Shown: positions 3-11,060, counted from the first letter of the stretch. The stretch: 26,319 nt of DNA from Candidatus Thorarchaeota archaeon (GCA_019057475.1 DXJO01000042.1:1-26319), one strand, 5' to 3'. Notes: a model not told the origin generated them from the letters alone. A program made the numbers and translations.

Positions 3-575
3 CTGTACACTCGTGTCGGCATTCCCATGTATGACCTGAACCTTCTGATCAACGACCCTGGAGCACACACATCAAATGCCAATCTCATGCGAAACCCCGA
101 GACCATCGCTAAACTCGTTCATGACCAAGTGATGGAACAGCACACATACCTCTCGATTCCTCCTCATCTTGCGGATGCACACCTGAAGGGCGACATCTAC
201 ATCAAGGACCGCGAGTACTTCTCAACGCGCGATTACTGCGCAACTTGGGACCTCAGACAGATTCTCCTCCTAGGAATTGCACCAGATGGACTCGGTGGAA
301 TGCACTCCAGCGCTGCAGGACCCGCCCAGCACCTTCCTGTGGCCGTCAATCATGCCGCGATATGGCTAGCCGCGGCTCAGAGTTCGTTTGCTGAGCGCCA
401 AGGCCTATTCTACTTCAACACCTTCCTCGCCCCGTATATGAAGGGCCTCCCTTACAAGAAGATCAAGCAGGCCGCACAACAGCTGATATTCACGCTCACC
501 CAGCAGTACGTGGCCCGAGGTGGTCAGGTCATCTTCTCAAGCGTTGACTTCACACCTGGGATTCCTAGGATAATG
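3..575 (+). pseudogene. nrdD: Anaerobic (class III) ribonucleotide reductase, N-terminal fragment, truncated at about 575
   Basis: Frame is open from the window start (LYTRVGIPMYDL) and contains NANL, HLKGDIYIKD, DYC, GPAQHL, AQSSFA..QG, FNTFLAPY and YVARGGQVIFSS, typical of archaeal NrdD. Similarity ends after PGIPRIM and the ORF stops at 677, far short of the glycyl-radical C-terminus. The usual FAGGQ reads FAERQ. Confidence 0.8.
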
Positions 576-634
576 AGTCTTGTTCATTCATATCAACCTC
601 GAAGGCTGAAGATTCACCCCTTGGGAGCGAGAGT

Positions 635-1297
635 GTGCTGGAGAGTCTCGGTGCTGAGTTCACTGTCATTGATCTAAACTGGTCGCCCGAAGAAGAACCA
701 GACTGGTCCCCAGAGGACGAAGAGAAATCTGAAGACGCGGAAGATGAGGACGAAGAGGAAACTAAAGACGCAGAAGATGACGATGAAGAGAGCGAAGATG
801 CAGAAGTCGAAGAAGAAAGCGAGTTGGAAGATGAACGGGAACAAATGGACCCCAATCTGGTTCTCTTGCACACACTCGCAACAATGTCCATGAGTGCAAT
901 CGAGGACTTGGACCACGACGAACCGTACGAGAAAGTTCAATGGGATGAAGACTTGGCGGAGCGATGCCTATGCATTGTCCCAACGCAGATCCACCCTATC
1001 GCCACTGGCTCTGGGATGTACTTGGGCTTCTGGGGCTACCTCTGTGAGTTCGACCCTGAAACAGAGTCGGTCAGCGGCAGGAGGGTGACAATGTCACTCC
1101 CCTCAAAGCTAACGAGATGGATGGGGGCAGACCCTGAGAGCTTCTCGATGAAGGCAGACCCTGTTGATGACGCGGTCGTGTTCATGATCATCACGCAGTA
1201 TTATGGTCGAGAAGAGTTTGAGATAGATGGGCAGATGAGGAGTGCCCACACGTTCGGAACAATAGACCTCATAGAGAGTCGTTGGTCTGAAATATAG
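635..1297 (+). CDS. Highly acidic hypothetical protein (D/E low-complexity tract followed by a beta-rich globular domain), possibly 5'-truncated
   Basis: 220-aa ORF with repeats WSPEE/WSPED and three DAE-(D/E)n units. The frame is open upstream to 569, i.e. right up to the nrdD breakpoint. Confidence 0.7.
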   Translation: MLESLGAEFTVIDLNWSPEEEPDWSPEDEEKSEDAEDEDEEETKDAEDDDEESEDAEVEEESELEDEREQMDPNLVLLHTLATMSMSAIEDLDHDEPYEKVQWDEDLAERCLCIVPTQIHPIATGSGMYLGFWGYLCEFDPETESVSGRRVTMSLPSKLTRWMGADPESFSMKADPVDDAVVFMIITQYYGREEFEIDGQMRSAHTFGTIDLIESRWSEI

Positions 1298-1371: not shown

Positions 1372-2595
1372 TCAGTTGAGCTTCGACTGCTTTTTCGCCA
1401 TTCCTTCTGAGTTGATTCCCTGCTCAGGCAGTATATCAGAAACGTGAATCAGTTGAATGTGATATCTGGTGCCTTTCAATGAAGCAAGCATCCTCTTGTT
1501 GAAGCCATTCGCCACAACAACCCCTCTTACCTTGCTCTTTGGTCCGAATTCCTCCTCAGCCCATACCAAGTATCGTTGAATTTGAGCCACGACATCATCA
1601 TCGGCTTCACCTATCTTGAGCTCCACCACAACCTTTGCACCATCTGGGGCCTCCAAGAGCAGGTCAATTCTGCCTGTGTCAGTCGGCACCTGTCTTCCAA
1701 CGCAAGTTAGGCCAACACCCAGCGGTGATGGATTTGCAACAAGAAAGGCCTCGAGTTGTTTCTCGCTTTCAATCTGCATAGACTCAGCGGTAGGCACTTG
1801 AGGCATGGTATGACCGGTGATTTGGATACCAGCTACGCACAAGTACATGTCATAGGTGGCAAGCTTGTCCTTGGTTCGTTCAGCAGTAAGGATCCCTGTC
1901 AATTCGATCACGTTGCCATTCCTTAGGACACCCGCGAGGTCTCCTTCAAGCCTGACCTCCATTGAAAAGGGTATTTCGCCGCGAGGTCTGTCCGTGGGAA
2001 GCTCCTCAATGCAACCCTTTTGGAAATCTACAAAGCGTGACAGTTCCTGAATTAATTGCATTGCAGTCTTCTTCCCGCATACTGGACACAAGGGAGGCTC
2101 AGTGTATCTCCCTTCCTCCTGCGTTTGGGGAATATCCCCACCACAAATTCTGCATCTGAAAACAGCCTCAATCAGCAGTGAGTTCGTTTCCGAGGCTTCC
2201 GCGACAACCCCTGTTGCGGTGATAAGTTTCCCAATGTGTTTGGTCTTGACTGCTCTGAGAGCCACGCGATTTGGGAAGTTGATGATACGTATCCTCAGAA
2301 GACTGGTATCGATTGCATTGACATATTCCGGGTCCTCGACGTGCAAGACACCTACCAGGGCTTTGCTTAACACGTTAAGGAACTGCATCGGGTCCTCCGT
2401 GGCAAGAATCGTGAAGACGCGGTCGAAGCTGACTAGATCTTGGAAGTCTACGGCCAATGATGTTTCGTCGTCTATGGACATCTGTTGAAGACGGGACCAG
2501 TACACGAGTATTCCTTGCTCGTTCTTGTAAGTGCGAAGAAACTCCTCAAATTTCTCTTGAGGACCGTCCTCTGGAAGGGATGTCATAGTTTCCAT
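1372..2595 (-). CDS. MCM N-terminal domain (helical A, Zn-finger B, OB-fold C) fused to a NucS/EndoMS-like PD-(D/E)xK nuclease; no AAA+ domain
   Basis: Residues ~1-262 carry MCM N-terminal motifs (QEKFEEFL, VDFQDL, LRAVKTKHIGKLI..TGVV, CRIC...CPVC, SRFVDFQK..IEELP...GEIP, LEGDLAG...G..IELTGIL). Residues ~275-385 read ESEKQLE...GRQVPTDTGRIDLL...VVVELK...QIQRY, a NucS-like catalytic domain. No Walker A/B motifs. Confidence 0.9.
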   Translation of the reverse strand: METMTSLPEDGPQEKFEEFLRTYKNEQGILVYWSRLQQMSIDDETSLAVDFQDLVSFDRVFTILATEDPMQFLNVLSKALVGVLHVEDPEYVNAIDTSLLRIRIINFPNRVALRAVKTKHIGKLITATGVVAEASETNSLLIEAVFRCRICGGDIPQTQEEGRYTEPPLCPVCGKKTAMQLIQELSRFVDFQKGCIEELPTDRPRGEIPFSMEVRLEGDLAGVLRNGNVIELTGILTAERTKDKLATYDMYLCVAGIQITGHTMPQVPTAESMQIESEKQLEAFLVANPSPLGVGLTCVGRQVPTDTGRIDLLLEAPDGAKVVVELKIGEADDDVVAQIQRYLVWAEEEFGPKSKVRGVVVANGFNKRMLASLKGTRYHIQLIHVSDILPEQGINSEGMAKKQSKLN

Positions 2596-2744
2596 CTCTC
2601 TTCTTTGCTTATCTCATTTTCCAACAGATCGTCGCTAAGGAGTCTGGAGCCATAGAAGGGATGCATCAGGCCGACCTTAAGGCCACCGCCGAGCAGCCGG
2701 TTCAGTTCGGGGATACCTGTATTCATAGTCCGATAGAATGTCAT
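2583..2744 (-). pseudogene. RadA/RecA-paralogue N-terminal fragment (53 aa, not in the ORF track)
   Basis: Manual translation: MTFYRTMNTGIPELNRLLGGGLKVGLMHPFYGSRLLSDDLLENEISKEERWKL*. It has the TG..LD/N.LLGGG motif with a degenerate Walker A. Its stop overlaps the start region of the MCM fusion. Confidence 0.7.
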
Positions 2745-3388: not shown

Positions 3389-4780
3389 CTACTTCAATGC
3401 TCTTGAGGCAATCATTCCAATGATTCTTGTGAGCTGATGCTCGAAAGCTCTGCTAAGGTCATCAGCACCGCATATGGCGTGTCCCACTTCGTGGAGCAGC
3501 ACCCCCGCATATCTCTCGAGGCTACTGAGTACATCACGTTTTACGACTATTCTGCCTTCCGTAGGCTCCCACACTCCTTCAACCTCCACGAATGTATCTG
3601 AATCTCTCCTCATAGTTTCTGAGATGGCAATGTGCGCAACAGTCGCAGGTTTGCCCCCGATTAGGTCCAGAACGCTTTCTGTCATATTGAAGACATTGCT
3701 TTCAGAAGGGGTCAGATCCTTCGATTTCACAAACTTGAACTCAAAGCTATCGTTGTATTCTTTTCGCAACTGGCCTAGGTCACGGATTGGTTTTCCAGCT
3801 ATGTCCGTCTTCCCTTCAATCCGCTCTTTCAGGTTCCTTGGAATCGTAATTATTTCAAGGCCGGAAGTGATTGCCTCGTTAACCATCATACTAGAACGCA
3901 TCATCTCCTCCGATGTAAGGAAAACTACGCGGGAAAAAGCATTGAGAGTCCTCACAGCCTGTTCCTGTACATCTATCCAGTTAAGCTCGTCATGAAGCCG
4001 ACCTACTTCATAATTCTTGAGATCGTCGACTAGATGCACAGCAACCTCCTTATTCTGACAGGAGAGAAGCATGGACTTCACTCTTCCCGAGTATGCAGTT
4101 CGTCCCACATTCGTCCGTTCTCTGTTCATGGCCTTCCGTATTGCACTCGTAAGAGAGGTGATGTTGTAGCTGAAAAGGAAGTTCTCCTCTTCGGCAACTC
4201 AGACTCCATTCACGTATATCCTTGCTGCTTCCGCTTTCTTTTCCAATACGTCGCCGTACTTGGTTTTCTCGATAACTCTCTCCCCAGAGAACCTTAGAAA
4301 GAGGTTTTTCGCCTTAAGGATATCATCATCTTTTATTCCCTTTAGGATAAACTCAGTACCTACAAAATCAGTATCCGAAGGAGGTGAAATGTAAGCATGA
4401 AGAGTAATAATGTCTTCGAAGCTATGCTTCTGTGACTTCCCAAGGGTAATCTTGCCATACTTCGATTCTATGAGCACATTCACACGATTCCTATCAAACG
4501 TGGCTAGTGCGTCTTTGAGCCCTATGCCGAATTTGCCTATCATATGCGGATTTCCGAGCTTCTCTTCATTCTCTTTCTGTGTGAGATGTTCATGCCTGAG
4601 GCCTCGACCGTAGTCCCTAATGTGCCAGTGACCCTTGGCATCCTTGAAGATATCGATTTCTTTGGTCCGAGTCAGTATTTGCTCATCTATTGAATTTGCT
4701 ATAACCTCTCTGATAGCATGGCATGTTTCCCAATCCTCTAGGATTTTCTCTATGTTCAAATCGAATTGCTTCCTAGACAC
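3389..4780 (-). pseudogene. GHKL (HATPase_c/MORC-like) ATPase with a C-terminal HExxH zincin motif, interrupted by one in-frame TGA at 4199-4201
   Basis: ORFs 4199..4780 and 3389..4129 are in the same frame and read RIYVNGV*VAEEENFLFSYNITSLTSAIRKAMNRERTN. GHKL motifs REVIANSID, DYGRG and GKFGIGLK are present, plus LLHEVGH near the C-terminus. The joined product would be 463 aa. Confidence 0.85.
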
Positions 4781-5552
4781 TTACATCAACTCCGATTCAA
4801 CCATCAGTAGAGTGAGCACGATACCCTCAAGGACTGTTGACTCTCCAAGCAGACTAAATAGGATTGCCTAGTTGGTCATAAACTGTATGCTTCCAATAAT
4901 CTATCTAGTAGAATAGTTCAGTTTGGCACCACTAATGGCAAGATGTGCTATCTTGATATTCATGTCCAATCATTAGCTGGATATTGCCACAGTCCCTCAC
5001 AATCGTGCAATGATTCACGAACTCGTCCTTTCTTATCATTTGATTGGATATCTAAACACACGCGATAAAGATAAAGATGAGGAACTGTTACAAGACAGGC
5101 TCCCAATCTCCGAGCTGCCAAGGGATGAATTATCTCAGTCTGCAACAAGAAACTGAACGTCCGATTCTTTATGCCAATCCGTATCCTTGACAGAAGGAGC
5201 CAAGGCGCTCCTAGCAACACAGGTTAGAGAGTGTCCATTTGGATTTCCCAAACGGCTTATTGCTAGGGCGATACAAAAAAAGAGTGTTCACAGTTAGAGA
5301 ACTGTCTGATCATAACCTAGGATATGACTTCGACCAAGCAAGACCATCATCATTGGATTTAACAAAGCTAAGCTGTCTCCACACCTGTCGAGATGGCGGC
5401 ATTTTCCAAGAAAGGCCTAGATACACCTATATGCATCGACCAGTAAATCGTTGTTTGGGGGACAACCAGCTACCAAACAGGACCCCATCATGAATTGAGC
5501 TTTCTTGAAGAGCCTGACGATTGCCAAATTATTTCAGGCGGAGGAGGGTACC

Positions 5553-7529
5553 TTGCTAATCCAAAGTATAGATGTGAAGAACTTCCGTTGCATTAGGGAA
5601 GAAACACTGGATTGTGACCGACTCACAGTAATCATTGGAAGGAATGGTGCTGGCAAGTCGACGTTTCTTCAATCTCTCGACAAGTTCTTCGATACAGGTG
5701 CTTCATTCAGCGAAGAAGATTTCTTCAACAGACAGACCGAAGAAATGATTGAGATTAGAATCACATTCGATACTCTTCAGCCTAAGGAAATTGATGAGTT
5801 CAGTCCATATGTGTATGACCAAGAGCTCATAGTCACCAAACGTGTGTCTTTCGAGAATGGGATAATCATTCCTAGGCTCTATGCTTCAAAAAAGCAACTG
5901 CCACAATTCGCAGAGATTAGGTCGATTAGCAGCAAAAACGACCGACGATCTCAATGGAATGAGTTCGTAGAAGCAGGAACAATTCAAGAGCTAGAAAAAG
6001 GAAGAAGTGCAGACCACATCGAACAGATGATGCAGGAGTATGAATCTGCACATCCAGACATGCTTCAGCCGATTGAACAAGAGGTCCAATTCTTCGGTGC
6101 GAAGAACATCGGTGGAGGGAAACTCGACAAGTTCACCAAATACGTACTAGTTCCAGCAGTGCGTGAAGTCACAGATGAAACTGCAGGGAAGAAAGGTGCA
6201 ATTGAGCAACTTCTAAAGATGGTTGTTCTCAGAAGAGTAAATAGTAGAAGTGATATTCAGGCATTCAAGGCCGAATTTGAGCAACAGGCAAGAGAAATTT
6301 ATAGCACAGAGAATCTGAGCGAAATCAAAGAATTGAGCATTGAAATATCTATCATACTGGATAGATTCGCCCCTGGTTCAAAGCTCAATCTCAAATGGGC
6401 TGAATTTGAGCCACCAGACCTAAGCCCTCCAAATGCAGTTGCCACATTAATTGAAGATGAATTTGAGGGCGATATCTCTCATAAGGGACACGGTCTTCAA
6501 AGAGCATTGATATTGACTCTTCTTCAATACCTTGCTGAAACTTCTGTGAAAAATATTGCTAACGAGCTTGAATCCGATGAGCAAGCGACATCTGAAGAAA
6601 CAGCAACTACCATTGAAGGTCCGGATTTGATACTTGCCATTGAAGAACCTGAATTATACCTTCATCCATCTAGATGCCGCCACCTTTCTACTTTACTATA
6701 CTCTCTTTGCCAAGATACAGATGCTGGTCCTAGAACCAAGACTCAAGTCATTTACACATCTCATTCGCCGTATTTCCTGGACTTGCATCGTTTTGATCAA
6801 ATCAGACTGGTTAGAAAAGAAAGACCGGCAACTGGGATACCTCAGACCGAAGTCACATCATACTCCCTTGACACGGCAGCTTCCGAACTAGCGCATATCT
6901 GCGAGAAGTCTCCTGACTGCTTCACTCGCTCGACCTTCAAGGCACATGCGATGTCAGTTATGAATGTCATTGTCAATGAGGGTTTCTTCTCTCGAACAGT
7001 TGTAGTAGTTGAGGGAATTTCCGATGTAGGTATGCTATGGAAGGTACAAGAAGTTCTGGAATTGAAATGGGCCGAAAGGGGAATCGCAATTGTACCGGCA
7101 GGCGGCAAGAATAACATCGATCGCCCAGTAGTGATATTCAGGGGTCTTGGTATCCCTGTTTACTTTGTTTTTGACGCTGATGCACACCATCAAGGACGCA
7201 GTGAGGAGCCGAAAACCAAAGCAAGAAATCTTAGATACCAAAGAATGGCAGGAGTTGTTCCTGTTGATTTTCCGGACACACAAGTTCATGAAACATGGGC
7301 GGTCTTTCGAGAGGACATTGAAACAACCATCGAGAATGAACTTGGGGATGACGTTTTCACAAGAATCCGCGATGAAGTAGCCCATGAGCTAGGCTACGAT
7401 GAGCAAAGTAGAGTAATGAAAACCATTGAAGGTTCTGCAATGTTTGTAGAGCGTGCGTACGAGCTGGGTCACAGATTGCCCACACTGGAGAGCATCACTC
7501 GCATAGTTACACAACTAAGTCCGACATGA
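5553..7529 (+). CDS. OLD-family ATP-dependent endonuclease (ABC ATPase + TOPRIM)
   Basis: KNFRCI, Walker A GRNGAGKST, signature KGHGLQR, Walker B/D-loop IEEPELYLHP, H-loop TSHS, TOPRIM VVEGISD and DAD. GGAGGAGGG lies just upstream of TTG 5553 (the ORF track starts at 5505). Confidence 0.9.
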   Translation: MLIQSIDVKNFRCIREETLDCDRLTVIIGRNGAGKSTFLQSLDKFFDTGASFSEEDFFNRQTEEMIEIRITFDTLQPKEIDEFSPYVYDQELIVTKRVSFENGIIIPRLYASKKQLPQFAEIRSISSKNDRRSQWNEFVEAGTIQELEKGRSADHIEQMMQEYESAHPDMLQPIEQEVQFFGAKNIGGGKLDKFTKYVLVPAVREVTDETAGKKGAIEQLLKMVVLRRVNSRSDIQAFKAEFEQQAREIYSTENLSEIKELSIEISIILDRFAPGSKLNLKWAEFEPPDLSPPNAVATLIEDEFEGDISHKGHGLQRALILTLLQYLAETSVKNIANELESDEQATSEETATTIEGPDLILAIEEPELYLHPSRCRHLSTLLYSLCQDTDAGPRTKTQVIYTSHSPYFLDLHRFDQIRLVRKERPATGIPQTEVTSYSLDTAASELAHICEKSPDCFTRSTFKAHAMSVMNVIVNEGFFSRTVVVVEGISDVGMLWKVQEVLELKWAERGIAIVPAGGKNNIDRPVVIFRGLGIPVYFVFDADAHHQGRSEEPKTKARNLRYQRMAGVVPVDFPDTQVHETWAVFREDIETTIENELGDDVFTRIRDEVAHELGYDEQSRVMKTIEGSAMFVERAYELGHRLPTLESITRIVTQLSPT

Positions 7530-7880
7530 TTCTATCTTTCAGACAACGAAGGGGCGCCGAGCTTCGGGTAGGTCCATTTCAGGGTGCTTCATTGCCGCTG
7601 GGAATGCTATTCCATACCCTCTTGGTCTGCTCCTCATTAGCCCCAATGGCCTTGAGGTCCTTCTTTGCAGCCTTGCCCCGTTTCACGTCCAGAATAAAAA
7701 GGAAGAGCTCGTGGTGCACCTTCAGACTGCTCTCTCTTGCGCTGCTGAGGTCTTCCTGACCTGGGCTCTTCCAACACATACAGCAACAAGTGCCCCCTAC
7801 AAACAGACAAGAACATCTAAGAGCATCTTCCTCATCATTGGAATAATGCAGTGAATGGACTGCATACGGGGTGACAAATC

Positions 7881-10034
7881 GTGGCGAGAGTAGAATCCAT
7901 ACGAATCAAGAACTTCAGGTCGATTGGCCCTGACACTCAGGCGATTGAGCTGGGCACGAAAATCACGATACTCGTGGGGCCCAACAACTCAGGGAAGTCG
8001 AACATCCTCGAAGCACTCCGTCTATCGCTCTCCACCCGCGGGGAGTCCCAGTGTGAGCCTGACGATATCAACCTGTCCGTCAGAAGACAGATTGAGAAAC
8101 ACCCCGACCCGGGAATGATGACTCTCTCTGAGATCCAAATGACTCTCTCTCTGGCAGACGAAGACATGGAGCACGCCCTTTCTGCAGCAAGGTTGAATCT
8201 GGAGTCCCAGACACGGGCCAGTCGTCAGCTTCCACTCGGAGTCAAGGACTGGGAGGAGATTGACAGCATCCTCGAGCAAGTCTGGAACGAGGTCTTCTCT
8301 GATCGATTGTTAGCTGATGTGTCAATATTCCGAAAGCAGGACGGGAGCTTTTCTATCGATTCATCCCTAAACAACTACGGAAGGCTATGGACGGGGGAAC
8401 ACTCAGATGTCGTTCATAAACTTGAAGAGATTCGACAGTCGCATCGTGCTACTGCACAGACTAGTCTCCAAGTACACATCAGTGGCCTTGCGAGCGCTAT
8501 GATTCCAGTTCTGCGAATCATGCCTCGTACTCTCCCAACTGATGTACTACGGGGCTTCATAGGCTATGAAGAGCTCCAGAAACAGACGCTCGATCACAAC
8601 AACCTGCGAAACTTCCTTCTCATGATGAGTGACCCGGTAAAGGCACGACTTGACGAGAGTGTCTATGAAACACTACGGGAGAGCATTCTCGCCGCGTTCG
8701 ATGACATAGATGAGATGGAGCCCACTCTGGAGAGATGGACTGGCAACGTGGAGGTGATGTTTACTAAAAGGGGCCTTCCCTTTGAACTCAGGAGTCAGGG
8801 CGATGGCGTCAAACATATGCTGATGTTCTTTGTACTTCTCCATTTTGCCAAGGGTGGAGTCGTGATAGTTGACGAACCGGAGAACCATCTCCATCCCACC
8901 CTTGAAGAGATACTCGTGGAATTTTTCCTGGAGTTCGGACAGGGCCAGCTGGTCATGGCAACCCACTCTGATACTCTAGTCAGTGCAATCTCTGATGACA
9001 GAATAGATAGCGGTGAAGTTGTTATCTATGGTGTCGGTCTCGATGAGGCCAACAATACGTATGTCACTAGAAGCACCAAAGCTGAAATCGTGGACATACT
9101 CGGGGACCTCGGAGTCACGACATCGAGGTATCAGAAGCACATGGCTGCTCTCCACAACACTCTGGTGCTTGTGGAAGGGAAGAGTGACAAGCAACTGATC
9201 TCGAGTATCTTACAGAAGTTTGACAAGATGGATGAATTCACGAAGTACCGTCCATACTTTCTGCCCTACGGAGGAAAGAGAGTGGCATCTGCCCTGTCCT
9301 CTGAGCTTATCGATTCACTGAGGAAGGCAGAAGACACACTTGAAACTCCACTCTCGCCATACGTAATAGTCAGAGACCGCGATGAAGAGGTAGTTGATGG
9401 TAGCGAACCCGTAGACTCTCACGTGCTGACTCTCTCAGTCAGAGAGATTGAAAATCTTGTTCTTTCCAAGGAGTCCATATTGAAAGCTGCAGGGCAGTTC
9501 TTGGAGGAAATTGGCATTGATGAGGGGGATGATGCTCTGTCAGCCTTTGAGCAACATCTGATGTTGCAAGTGGAAGAGTACTTTCCAAAGTGGATGATGC
9601 TCCGGTTCAGATGGCGAGTGAGCCCCATCTTGAGACCACTATGGCGGCATATTAAGGAGGTAGCTTGGAGTGACACAAAGAACGAGATGAGGTCCATTCT
9701 AGAGGACTTCGAGTCCAGGGTGAAAGGCGAAATTTCGAAACTTGAAAATCTAGACGCTGAGTTGGCTGAGCTCAGTGACACGTGCATGCCGGAAGGCCGG
9801 TTCAACTATCCGTTCATCGCACAGAACTTGCCAGGTAAAGACCTCCAGAGTCTAATTCGCAGAGCTCTGGTGGATACCGCCAGCGACATGAAGCCCAACT
9901 GTGAAATAGAAGAAGTCCAGCGGAAGGCCTCAGACATGACTAAGTTCAAAGTCTTCCTTGAGAACACCCAGATACTACCCCCAGACATCGGGAAACTTCT
10001 CTTATGCATGGAACAGGTTCAACCAGAGAAATAA
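7881..10034 (+). CDS. ABC ATPase (AAA_15-like) fused to a TOPRIM/DUF4435-like nuclease (OLD-like / fused-PARIS-like)
   Basis: KNFRSI, GPNNSGKS, QGDGVK, VDEPENHLHP and ATHS, then VEGKSD, VRDRD, REIEN and a C-terminal PGKDL. Confidence 0.85.
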   Translation: MARVESIRIKNFRSIGPDTQAIELGTKITILVGPNNSGKSNILEALRLSLSTRGESQCEPDDINLSVRRQIEKHPDPGMMTLSEIQMTLSLADEDMEHALSAARLNLESQTRASRQLPLGVKDWEEIDSILEQVWNEVFSDRLLADVSIFRKQDGSFSIDSSLNNYGRLWTGEHSDVVHKLEEIRQSHRATAQTSLQVHISGLASAMIPVLRIMPRTLPTDVLRGFIGYEELQKQTLDHNNLRNFLLMMSDPVKARLDESVYETLRESILAAFDDIDEMEPTLERWTGNVEVMFTKRGLPFELRSQGDGVKHMLMFFVLLHFAKGGVVIVDEPENHLHPTLEEILVEFFLEFGQGQLVMATHSDTLVSAISDDRIDSGEVVIYGVGLDEANNTYVTRSTKAEIVDILGDLGVTTSRYQKHMAALHNTLVLVEGKSDKQLISSILQKFDKMDEFTKYRPYFLPYGGKRVASALSSELIDSLRKAEDTLETPLSPYVIVRDRDEEVVDGSEPVDSHVLTLSVREIENLVLSKESILKAAGQFLEEIGIDEGDDALSAFEQHLMLQVEEYFPKWMMLRFRWRVSPILRPLWRHIKEVAWSDTKNEMRSILEDFESRVKGEISKLENLDAELAELSDTCMPEGRFNYPFIAQNLPGKDLQSLIRRALVDTASDMKPNCEIEEVQRKASDMTKFKVFLENTQILPPDIGKLLLCMEQVQPEK

Positions 10035-10799: not shown

Positions 10800-11060
10800 T
10801 CATGGAAATTCGATGCCATGTCGGTGAAGCCGCTTTCTCTCCACATTGATAGTATTTCCGGAGTCGATGATGATGGGGGGGAAGCCAGAGTGCTGAGAAT
10901 GAACGAGAATCCTGTGGAGGATGTCACGAATGTACTTGTCTCCATAGAAGAGGTAAGTGAGTCCCAACTCAAGTCCTCCTTCAAGCAGGGAGTCCAGTGA
11001 GGTTATTCCTGTTGGAAGCACCTTGCGGCCTTCGATCTTGTCTGCAGTCTGGAATGACAT
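10800..11060 (-). pseudogene. RadA/Rad51-paralogue N-terminal fragment (degenerate Walker A), truncated
   Basis: PTGITSLDSLLEGGLELGLTYLFYGDK and IIIDSGNTIN. Only 86 aa, far shorter than a RecA core. Confidence 0.75.

Follow-up and report, generated by a model that had tools for sequence, protein, structure and literature searches.

Few proteins of archaea and eukaryotes are as conserved, or as seldom 'borrowed', as the parts of the replicative helicase. The N-terminal domain of archaeal MCM, known from the structures of PfMCM-N (4pof), SsoMCM-N (2vl6), and MthMCM-N (1ltl), is built from a helical subdomain A, a zinc finger (subdomain B), and an OB fold (subdomain C), and the same elements recur in the first 265 residues of a protein encoded in a 26,319-nucleotide stretch of DNA from Candidatus Thorarchaeota archaeon (GCA_019057475.1, DXJO01000042.1:1-26319; this whole stretch is referred to as the window). 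Here, the MCM N-terminal tier (N-tier) is joined to a nuclease domain of the NucS type, and the protein is called the fusion below. In contrast to MCM helicases, it lacks the AAA+ motor, the lid, and the winged helix, and the MSSB arginines that bind single-stranded DNA (ssDNA) are not retained (Glu, Asp, or Asn at the first position; Cys at the second in the window copy).

With NucS/EndoMS, the fusion has in common the RecB-like nuclease fold and the full catalytic set, whereas the N-terminal domain responsible for dimerization and mismatch binding in those enzymes is absent, its place being taken by MCM. The score against the NucS model is 57.6 bits, compared with an equivalog cut-off of 216. 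NucS also carries a C-terminal PCNA-interacting motif of the QLxxLF type (PMC7343888); no such motif (PIP box) was found in the C-terminal tails of seven fusion homologues. Finally, the fusion has an accessory and not a lineage-wide distribution.

A third point of reference is Shedu (SduA), the type 1 form of which consists of one protein with a C-terminal PD-(D/E)xK nuclease distantly related to NucS, preceded by highly variable sensor or regulatory domains and encoded in defence islands (10.1101/2023.08.10.552793, 10.1101/2023.08.10.552762). The plan of variable N-domain, C-terminal nuclease, and defence-island location also describes the fusion, a likeness of design and not of membership: it has no match to the Shedu domain DUF4263/SduA_C (PF14082) at E<=1 or to a PADLOC Shedu model at E<=0.1, and 'MCM' is absent from the searched full text of the Shedu domain survey. 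PDC-S02 and PDC-S11 are single-gene candidates defined by their location in defence islands and themselves uncharacterised; only the nuclease segment of these profiles matches the fusion (174-290 of 308 and 16-95 of 358, respectively), the remainder being unrelated to MCM. A similar linker and C-terminal placement of the nuclease are found in NucS_C proteins with WD40, TPR, coiled-coil, or AlwI-N modules (P0124-P0130, P0137; loci in G250 and G185), but these N-modules are generic repeat or binding domains, whereas that of the fusion is a copy of a replisome component.

Judged by sequence, the fusion is no Shedu, and by the features that define those proteins it is neither an MCM helicase nor NucS. 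Modular single-protein nucleases in defence islands are a known kind; a copy of the host replicative-helicase ring as the N-module is new, and has so far turned up in only a handful of Thorarchaeota. A first-pass annotation of this DNA, made from the sequence alone, knew of no described protein with such an architecture, and no description of an MCM N-tier joined to a nuclease was found in the searchable literature, outside which most subscription journals lie.

Domain architecture and nuclease relatives

The open reading frame (1372..2595, minus strand) encodes 407 amino acids with no internal stop; its second methionine, at residue 4, corresponds to the start in orthologues. Pfam places three domains above their curated cut-offs, MCM_N at residues 13-104 (E 4.7e-14), MCM_OB at residues 113-238 (E 1.1e-24), and NucS_C at residues 277-367 (E 1.8e-11). 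In NCBIfam, the 682-position MCM model is covered over positions 2-262 by residues 13-267, and the 250-position NucS model over positions 120-225 by residues 269-374. The MCM score is 171 bits against a cut-off of 940, and 145 residues remain past the OB fold, with no match to PF00493 or any other AAA+ family in the protein when searched with Pfam and NCBIfam.

Read along the minus strand, subdomain A comprises residues 13-104 (2284..2559) and is followed by the OB fold (residues 105-262; 1810..2283), into which the C4 zinc finger is inserted (C148, C151, C170, and C173; 2077..2154). A linker of residues 263-276 (1768..1809) stands in place of the MCM N-C linker and leads into the NucS_C-type, RecB-family PD-(D/E)xK nuclease domain (residues 277-388; 1432..1767). 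The C-terminal tail (residues 389-407 and the stop codon; 1372..1431) has low model confidence and is 7-8 residues shorter in the window copy than in its orthologues.

An AlphaFold2 model of the fusion, based on a 100-row alignment, has a mean pLDDT of 90 and contains two well-folded bodies separated by a disordered stretch at residues 265-270. The modelled N-tier superposes on PfMCM-N and SsoMCM-N with TM scores of 0.87-0.88 and root-mean-square deviations of 2.2-2.3 A (0.87 and 2.3 A for PfMCM-N). Modelled alone (pLDDT 88), the nuclease domain has its best structural matches in P. abyssi NucS (2vld) and T. kodakarensis EndoMS (5gke), with E-values of 1e-8 to 5e-8 and a TM score of 0.70; other PD-(D/E)xK nucleases, including Shedu (E 0.012), are far weaker fold matches. 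The RecB-type residues of P. abyssi NucS, E127, D160, E174, K176, Q187, and Y191 (PMC7343888), align with E278, D311, E325, K327, Q338, and Y342 of the fusion, and this set, like the four zinc cysteines, is invariant across seven aligned homologues. The domain databases and the structural model therefore agree with the first-pass description of an MCM N-tier, a linker, and a NucS-like domain without Walker A or B motifs, to which the minus strand is now added, and the PD-(D/E)xK site that it considered intact proves to be the complete RecB-type set.

The nuclease half lies within a large NucS_C-like set (1923 representatives at E<=1e-3). Its nearest relatives, at 45-49% identity, fall into a single clade with the fusions (SH-aLRT 99); they carry the nuclease as the C-terminal module of WD40-propeller and coiled-coil proteins, and slightly more distant ones are fused to TPR, the AlwI N-domain, or zinc ribbons. 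All 65 sampled nuclease domains match NucS_C, 42 of them YhcG_C, and three, weakly, SduA_C. The domain also matches the PADLOC defence-candidate families PDC-S02 (6e-17) and PDC-S11 (1.8e-14), as well as S18 and S26. Taken as a whole, the fusion nuclease stems from a promiscuous pool of proteins that combine a variable N-domain with this nuclease. Its closest kin are the metagenomic proteins P0124, P0125, P0127, P0128, and P0129, in which a WD40/beta-propeller precedes a C-terminal NucS_C-type nuclease across a near-identical linker; the searches returned no source names for them.

Origin and remodelling of the MCM half

The fusion N-tier is 60% identical to that of the single full-length MCM of the same genome (G000, contig 54), which lies in a normal replication locus adjoining the RFC small subunit and a gene whose sequence reads as GINS. 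The N-tier tree places the fusions, on very long branches, within the Thorarchaeota MCMs. The window protein and its close orthologues (the window clade), together with a diverged fusion lineage, P0123, adjoin the MCMs of the window's own genus, and a further diverged lineage, P0021, pairs with the MCM encoded in the same genome, G331 (SH-aLRT 99). The N-tier of the fusion derives by duplication from the MCM of its host.

The maximum-likelihood N-tier tree separates the fusions from each other (SH-aLRT 99), but a single fusion clade is not rejected by the approximately unbiased (AU) test (p 0.153), and the nuclease-domain tree does not settle whether the fusions are monophyletic. At fixed differences between the two host MCM types, both fusions agree with their respective hosts at 9 sites, against 0 with the reverse combination, and own-host residues prevail 15:1 in P0021 and 13:7 in the window protein, in a post hoc count for which the groups were picked after the tree had been seen. 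A check for recent gene conversion with the host MCM revealed none: synonymous divergence extends over the entire N-tier, the most conserved protein segments included. The MCM half would either have been recruited more than once or have kept pace with the host MCM; both fit the data. The own-host residues would suit a role in protein contact or mimicry, and they fit a repeated independent origin equally well.

Among the host genes, the MCM of G331 on contig 5 (L051) leaves the MCM sequence directly past the Walker A lysine, as expected for an intein. MCM open frames of 1214-2403 residues are present in several members of the family (G331, G332, G334, G337, G317, G319, and G390), where frame length alone points to inteins outside G331.

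Retention of MCM features across the N-tier was counted over 119 positions with an invariance of at least 95% among the N-tiers of 106 Thorarchaeota MCMs. The window clade retains 20 of 27 such positions in subdomain A and 14 of 18 in the zinc finger; in the OB fold the count is 28 of 74 overall, made up of 10/21 in its first part and 18/53 in the second, AAA+-facing part. The P0021 and P0123 lineages have the same pattern. Identity to the host MCM amounts to 63-87% in subdomain A (80-87% over residues 11-60) and 80-90% in the zinc finger.

Deletion of the zinc finger turns PfMCM-N monomeric, and this element is among the features kept in the fusion. F188 is invariant in all eight fusions and aligns with Sso L189, a residue placed similarly to the PfMCM interface residue F179 (PMC4627082). 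The F179 position is the Chaos3 equivalent and belongs to the core of the subunit interface. The basic residues of the beta-turn, R240, K242, and K244, are present as well. As judged from these positions, the determinants of hexamerisation (F188, the zinc finger, and the basic beta-turn) are retained.

The DNA-facing side has been altered. The first MSSB arginine (Pf R124, equivalent to Sso K129; PMC3970758) corresponds to R137 in the host's own MCM; in its place stand E133 in the window clade and Asp and Asn in P0123 and P0021, respectively. The lysine beside it is Asn in the window clade. At the probable second MSSB position, the window copy has C195 (2011-2013, minus strand), with Arg in five orthologues and in P0123, and Lys in P0021. 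The beta-hairpin is 3-4 residues shorter in the fusion, and the motor-contacting loop (ACL) has been rewritten; the net charge of the N-tier and of its OB region does not differ from that of MCMs and is thus uninformative. The loss of the first MSSB arginine in all lineages and the heavy remodelling of the OB channel and the ACL make it less likely that the fusion simply grips ssDNA as MCM does. The combined pattern argues for an assembly that is still MCM-N-tier-like, with MCM-like outer and zinc-finger faces, and for a channel that has lost the canonical hold on ssDNA. Helical and zinc-finger faces that resemble those of the host MCM would suit a role in protein contact or mimicry, and a repeated independent origin just as well.

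Distribution, selection, and candidate functions

In public protein collections, the same three-domain architecture occurs in eight sequence clusters, all apparently from Thorarchaeota, that represent three diverged lineages. Five clusters (P0003-P0007) are 83-88% identical to the window protein, and the diverged lineages are 42-43% (P0021) and 45% (P0123) identical to it. The clusters derive from distinct assemblies (ENA, JGI, Logan, and NCBI), the reading frame is open in all eight, and the sole source name on any of these proteins, 'Nop10', is a mis-annotation. A word-indexed search with the nuclease region returned only the fusions and one other protein; the remaining homologues were recovered by an exhaustive search. 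In run X5, a 1.6-kb metagenome contig spans 1322-2635 at 89% identity without gaps and bridges the domain junction, which small contigs of run X2 likewise cover; run X1 is the probable source of the window's assembly.

Constraint on the gene was estimated as the ratio of nonsynonymous to synonymous divergence (dN/dS). Among six close orthologues, dN/dS is 0.26-0.49 for the whole gene (dS 0.13-0.25), 0.33-0.62 for the N-tier (dS 0.10-0.27), and 0.11-0.51 for the nuclease domain (dS 0.07-0.23), compared with 0.06-0.19 for the host MCM N-tier (dS 0.16-0.34). The ratio is well under 1 in every fusion pair, and the catalytic and zinc residues are unchanged across lineages that are merely 42-45% identical. 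Selection on the fusion is purifying but relaxed, with a constraint three to five times weaker than that on the host MCM N-tier. The first-pass annotation had listed, as observations that would undermine its proposal, a junction near 1780-1810 not spanned by reads, a singleton, and neutral decay. That junction lies within the linker (1768-1809) and is bridged by the independent X5 and X2 contigs; eight clusters in three lineages, together with these contigs, dispose of the singleton, and the selection estimates speak against neutral decay.

The gene is rare. An MCM N-tier is present in 81 of 86 species-level genomes of the family, and a second copy, the fusion, in two of the 86, the window's own (G000) and G331. 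Within the window's genus, the fusion is present in one of seven genomes and was not found in the other six (completeness 52-92%); the nuclease query returned no further fusion among 400 genomes of the phylum. In sample ERZ25748748, the contig carrying the fusion (L009) has a coverage of ~19 and that of a closely related full-length MCM (L075) one of ~56, figures taken solely from the contig names; if both belong to one population, only part of it would carry the fusion.

DNA similarity between the fusion loci is confined to ~2.1 kb (598-2742 of the window), which holds an acidic gene, the fusion, and a 53-residue stub, and the upstream flank is different at every locus. The first-pass annotation had placed the gene among defence genes, and the flank in the window bears this out with two OLD-family genes, HEPN, GIY-YIG, an N6/N4 methylase, GmrSD, HEPN-RiboL-PSP, a GHKL ATPase, and a Dam-like methylase. 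Elsewhere, the flank contains a prokaryotic Argonaute (pAgo), NurA/HerA/Mre11/Rad50, HNH, PLD, and a methylase (L005), giant DUF87 proteins (L007), or a Type ISP enzyme (L047). No operon partner is conserved beside the fusion, which therefore behaves like a module of one gene that borders a variable region rich in defence genes.

Based on these data, a simple model would be that the fusion is a stand-alone, ring-forming conflict nuclease, antiviral or anti-plasmid, that is specific to Thorarchaeota and lies outside core replication and repair. We favor this model and give it about an even chance of being correct, because the nuclease is intact and selected, its relatives are modular with sensor-like N-domains, it matches defence-candidate families, and the gene is patchily distributed, evolves fast, and has variable surroundings rich in defence genes. 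The N-tier would assemble a ring, as isolated MCM N-tiers do, and would place up to six nuclease domains, on flexible tethers of ~14 residues, where the motor usually sits. Either the ring or its host-MCM-like outer and zinc-finger faces would then pick the target, which could be a DNA end, a fork, an origin structure, or an MCM-engaging protein, and the nuclease would cut DNA. Ring assembly and target choice are probably what the N-tier supplies; that a ring forms, that the nuclease is active, that the protein serves in defence, and what triggers it are inferences.

A more specific proposal is that the fusion mimics the host replicative helicase, so that initiators or MCM-engaging factors of an invader recruit it, or that it docks head-to-head on MCM, with the nuclease ring delivered to foreign origins or forks in either case. 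We consider this version rather unlikely; within Thorarchaeia, the A and B faces, which have stayed host-MCM-like, may have arisen anew from the host MCM on two or more occasions. The first-pass annotation had offered a DNA-encircling ring, co-assembly with MCM, and a decoy as interpretations, any of which may apply; the architecture, intact site, and defence setting on which it built them all stand.

Several observations weigh against a conflict nuclease. Assignment from a defence-island context is guilt by association, and the window begins at a contig end, so that only one flank is seen; at L005, the neighbors NurA, HerA, Mre11, and Rad50 are repair genes. No partner gene that would suggest how self-DNA is spared is conserved beside the fusion across loci. 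The acidic or neutral residue in place of the MSSB arginine and the remodelled OB channel mean that MCM-style threading of DNA is not assured, and a family of eight clusters makes for weak statistics.

The repair genes at L005 would find a ready explanation if the fusion were instead a replisome-coupled repair factor, that is, a NucS-like endonuclease tethered through an MCM-like N-tier in place of a PCNA motif, acting on mismatches, flaps, or stalled forks as a lineage-specific substitute for canonical NucS. The latter was not found in the genome, the catalytic set of the fusion is identical to that of NucS/EndoMS, its closest solved fold, and GINS or MCM might be contacted by the MCM-like A and zinc-finger faces; a RadA paralogue, as a relic or a gene, also adjoins the fusion in two lineages. 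However, a housekeeping role is weakened because the gene is so rare in the family and genus, a full MutS is present in the same genome, and the PCNA motif is missing. The mismatch-binding N-domain of NucS is absent too, dN/dS exceeds the value for the host MCM N-tier by a factor of three to five, and the flanks are variable and consist mostly of defence genes, which leaves repair an improbable explanation, on a par with helicase mimicry. Less probable still is decay. A non-functional chimera drifting to loss would be rare, show relaxed constraint on its N-tier, and adjoin pseudogenic debris, as observed, and the window copy has Cys at position 195, where its relatives have Arg or Lys, and a shorter C-terminus. 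This reading is weakened to the point of being highly improbable because selection acts in every pair and the active-site and zinc residues are conserved across lineages, with the frame open in every cluster.

The host-like faces of the N-tier could also be put to use against the cell itself. As a dominant-negative 'poison subunit', the fusion would co-assemble with the host MCM or dock head-to-head through the zinc finger, carrying the nuclease into a host or viral replisome and causing abortive arrest or fork cleavage. Helical (80-87%, residues 11-60) and zinc-finger (80-90%) regions that remain host-like despite diverged synonymous sites, the 9:0 count of own-host residues for both fusions and 15:1 for P0021, and the kept interface phenylalanine are all in line with such contacts. 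But independent recent origins from each host's MCM would yield the same pattern, the AU test leaves a single origin unrejected, and the site groups were selected after the tree was viewed; moreover, a cell with a single MCM would pay dearly for poisoning it constitutively, and no conserved inhibitor gene adjoins the fusion. We regard this mode of action as distinctly unlikely. Of similarly low probability is a gene or remnant that serves a mobile element, as an origin-nicking or incompatibility factor or by interfering with host replication. The patchy distribution is what such an element would produce, the conserved block sits among truncated genes (the RadA-paralogue stub and an NrdD fragment at two contig ends) and a five-copy acidic gene, and at one locus (L048) a gene with a resolvase- or transposase-type helix-turn-helix lies downstream. 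Yet genes for an integrase, capsid, Rep, or partition protein are absent from the ~2.1-kb block, the N-tier falls within the chromosomal MCMs of Thorarchaeota and follows them, and the acidic neighbor occurs in housekeeping contexts too.

In these Asgard archaea, the half of MCM that forms rings and binds partners has been copied without its motor, coupled to a nuclease, and maintained by selection beside defence genes. If the fusion is a conflict nuclease as favored here, a component of the host replisome would join the modular nuclease systems of bacteria as a new class of sensor or scaffold. Should it engage MCM or factors that recruit MCM, it would set a precedent, and supply a natural tool, for immunity that monitors the replication machinery itself. 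As an N-tier without a motor, it also provides a simple natural construct for the study of MCM ring assembly and partner binding.

Neighboring genes

The acidic gene (635-1297, plus strand) is convergent to the fusion and belongs to a multi-copy family, with five copies in the genome at 79-85% identity (others on G000 contigs 42, 28, 25, and 20) and further members in G349 and G394. Its products have a long Asp/Glu-rich N-terminal half and a conserved C-terminal domain of ~130 residues without a Pfam or PADLOC match. The gene was considered as an inhibitor or specific partner of the fusion and rejected as such: the genome has five copies of it, the family also occupies housekeeping contexts and occurs in genomes that lack the fusion, and L048 does not have it.

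On the other side, a 53-residue open frame (2583..2744, minus strand) overlaps the start of the fusion. It corresponds to the first ~45 residues of a family of Walker-A-less RadA paralogues and is frameshifted in two of six orthologous loci, on which ground a coupled small gene was rejected; the stub would accordingly be a relic or a 5' leader and not a conserved gene. A further stub of this kind lies at 10917-11021 (minus strand), with kin on G000 contigs 20, 36, and 51, and the full-length RadA paralogues (248-256 residues) themselves lack a Walker A motif. In G331, a fragment of a Rad51-family gene adjoins the fusion (L013, 3-359).

The contig opens with an N-terminal fragment of NrdD (3-677, plus strand; profile positions 2-169 of 562) that runs into the acidic gene. 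A second NrdD N-fragment is found at the end of G000 contig 32, and the full NrdD is on contig 40. These repeated pieces are the probable cause of the contig breaks and may mark an insertion site.

Beyond the conserved block lie genes for a 246-residue protein that ends in an HExxH-type motif (HEVGH; 3389-4129, minus strand) and for a 193-residue GHKL-ATPase-like fragment (4199-4780, minus strand). Neither has a PADLOC match; both are on the strand of the fusion, set apart from it by a membrane-protein gene on the opposite strand. Farther along, 5505-10034 (plus strand) contains two adjacent OLD-family genes (AAA_15/AAA_21 and TOPRIM; 674 and 717 residues), followed by HEPN and GIY-YIG, and the region around the OLD pair may be a Gabija- or PARIS-like neighborhood.

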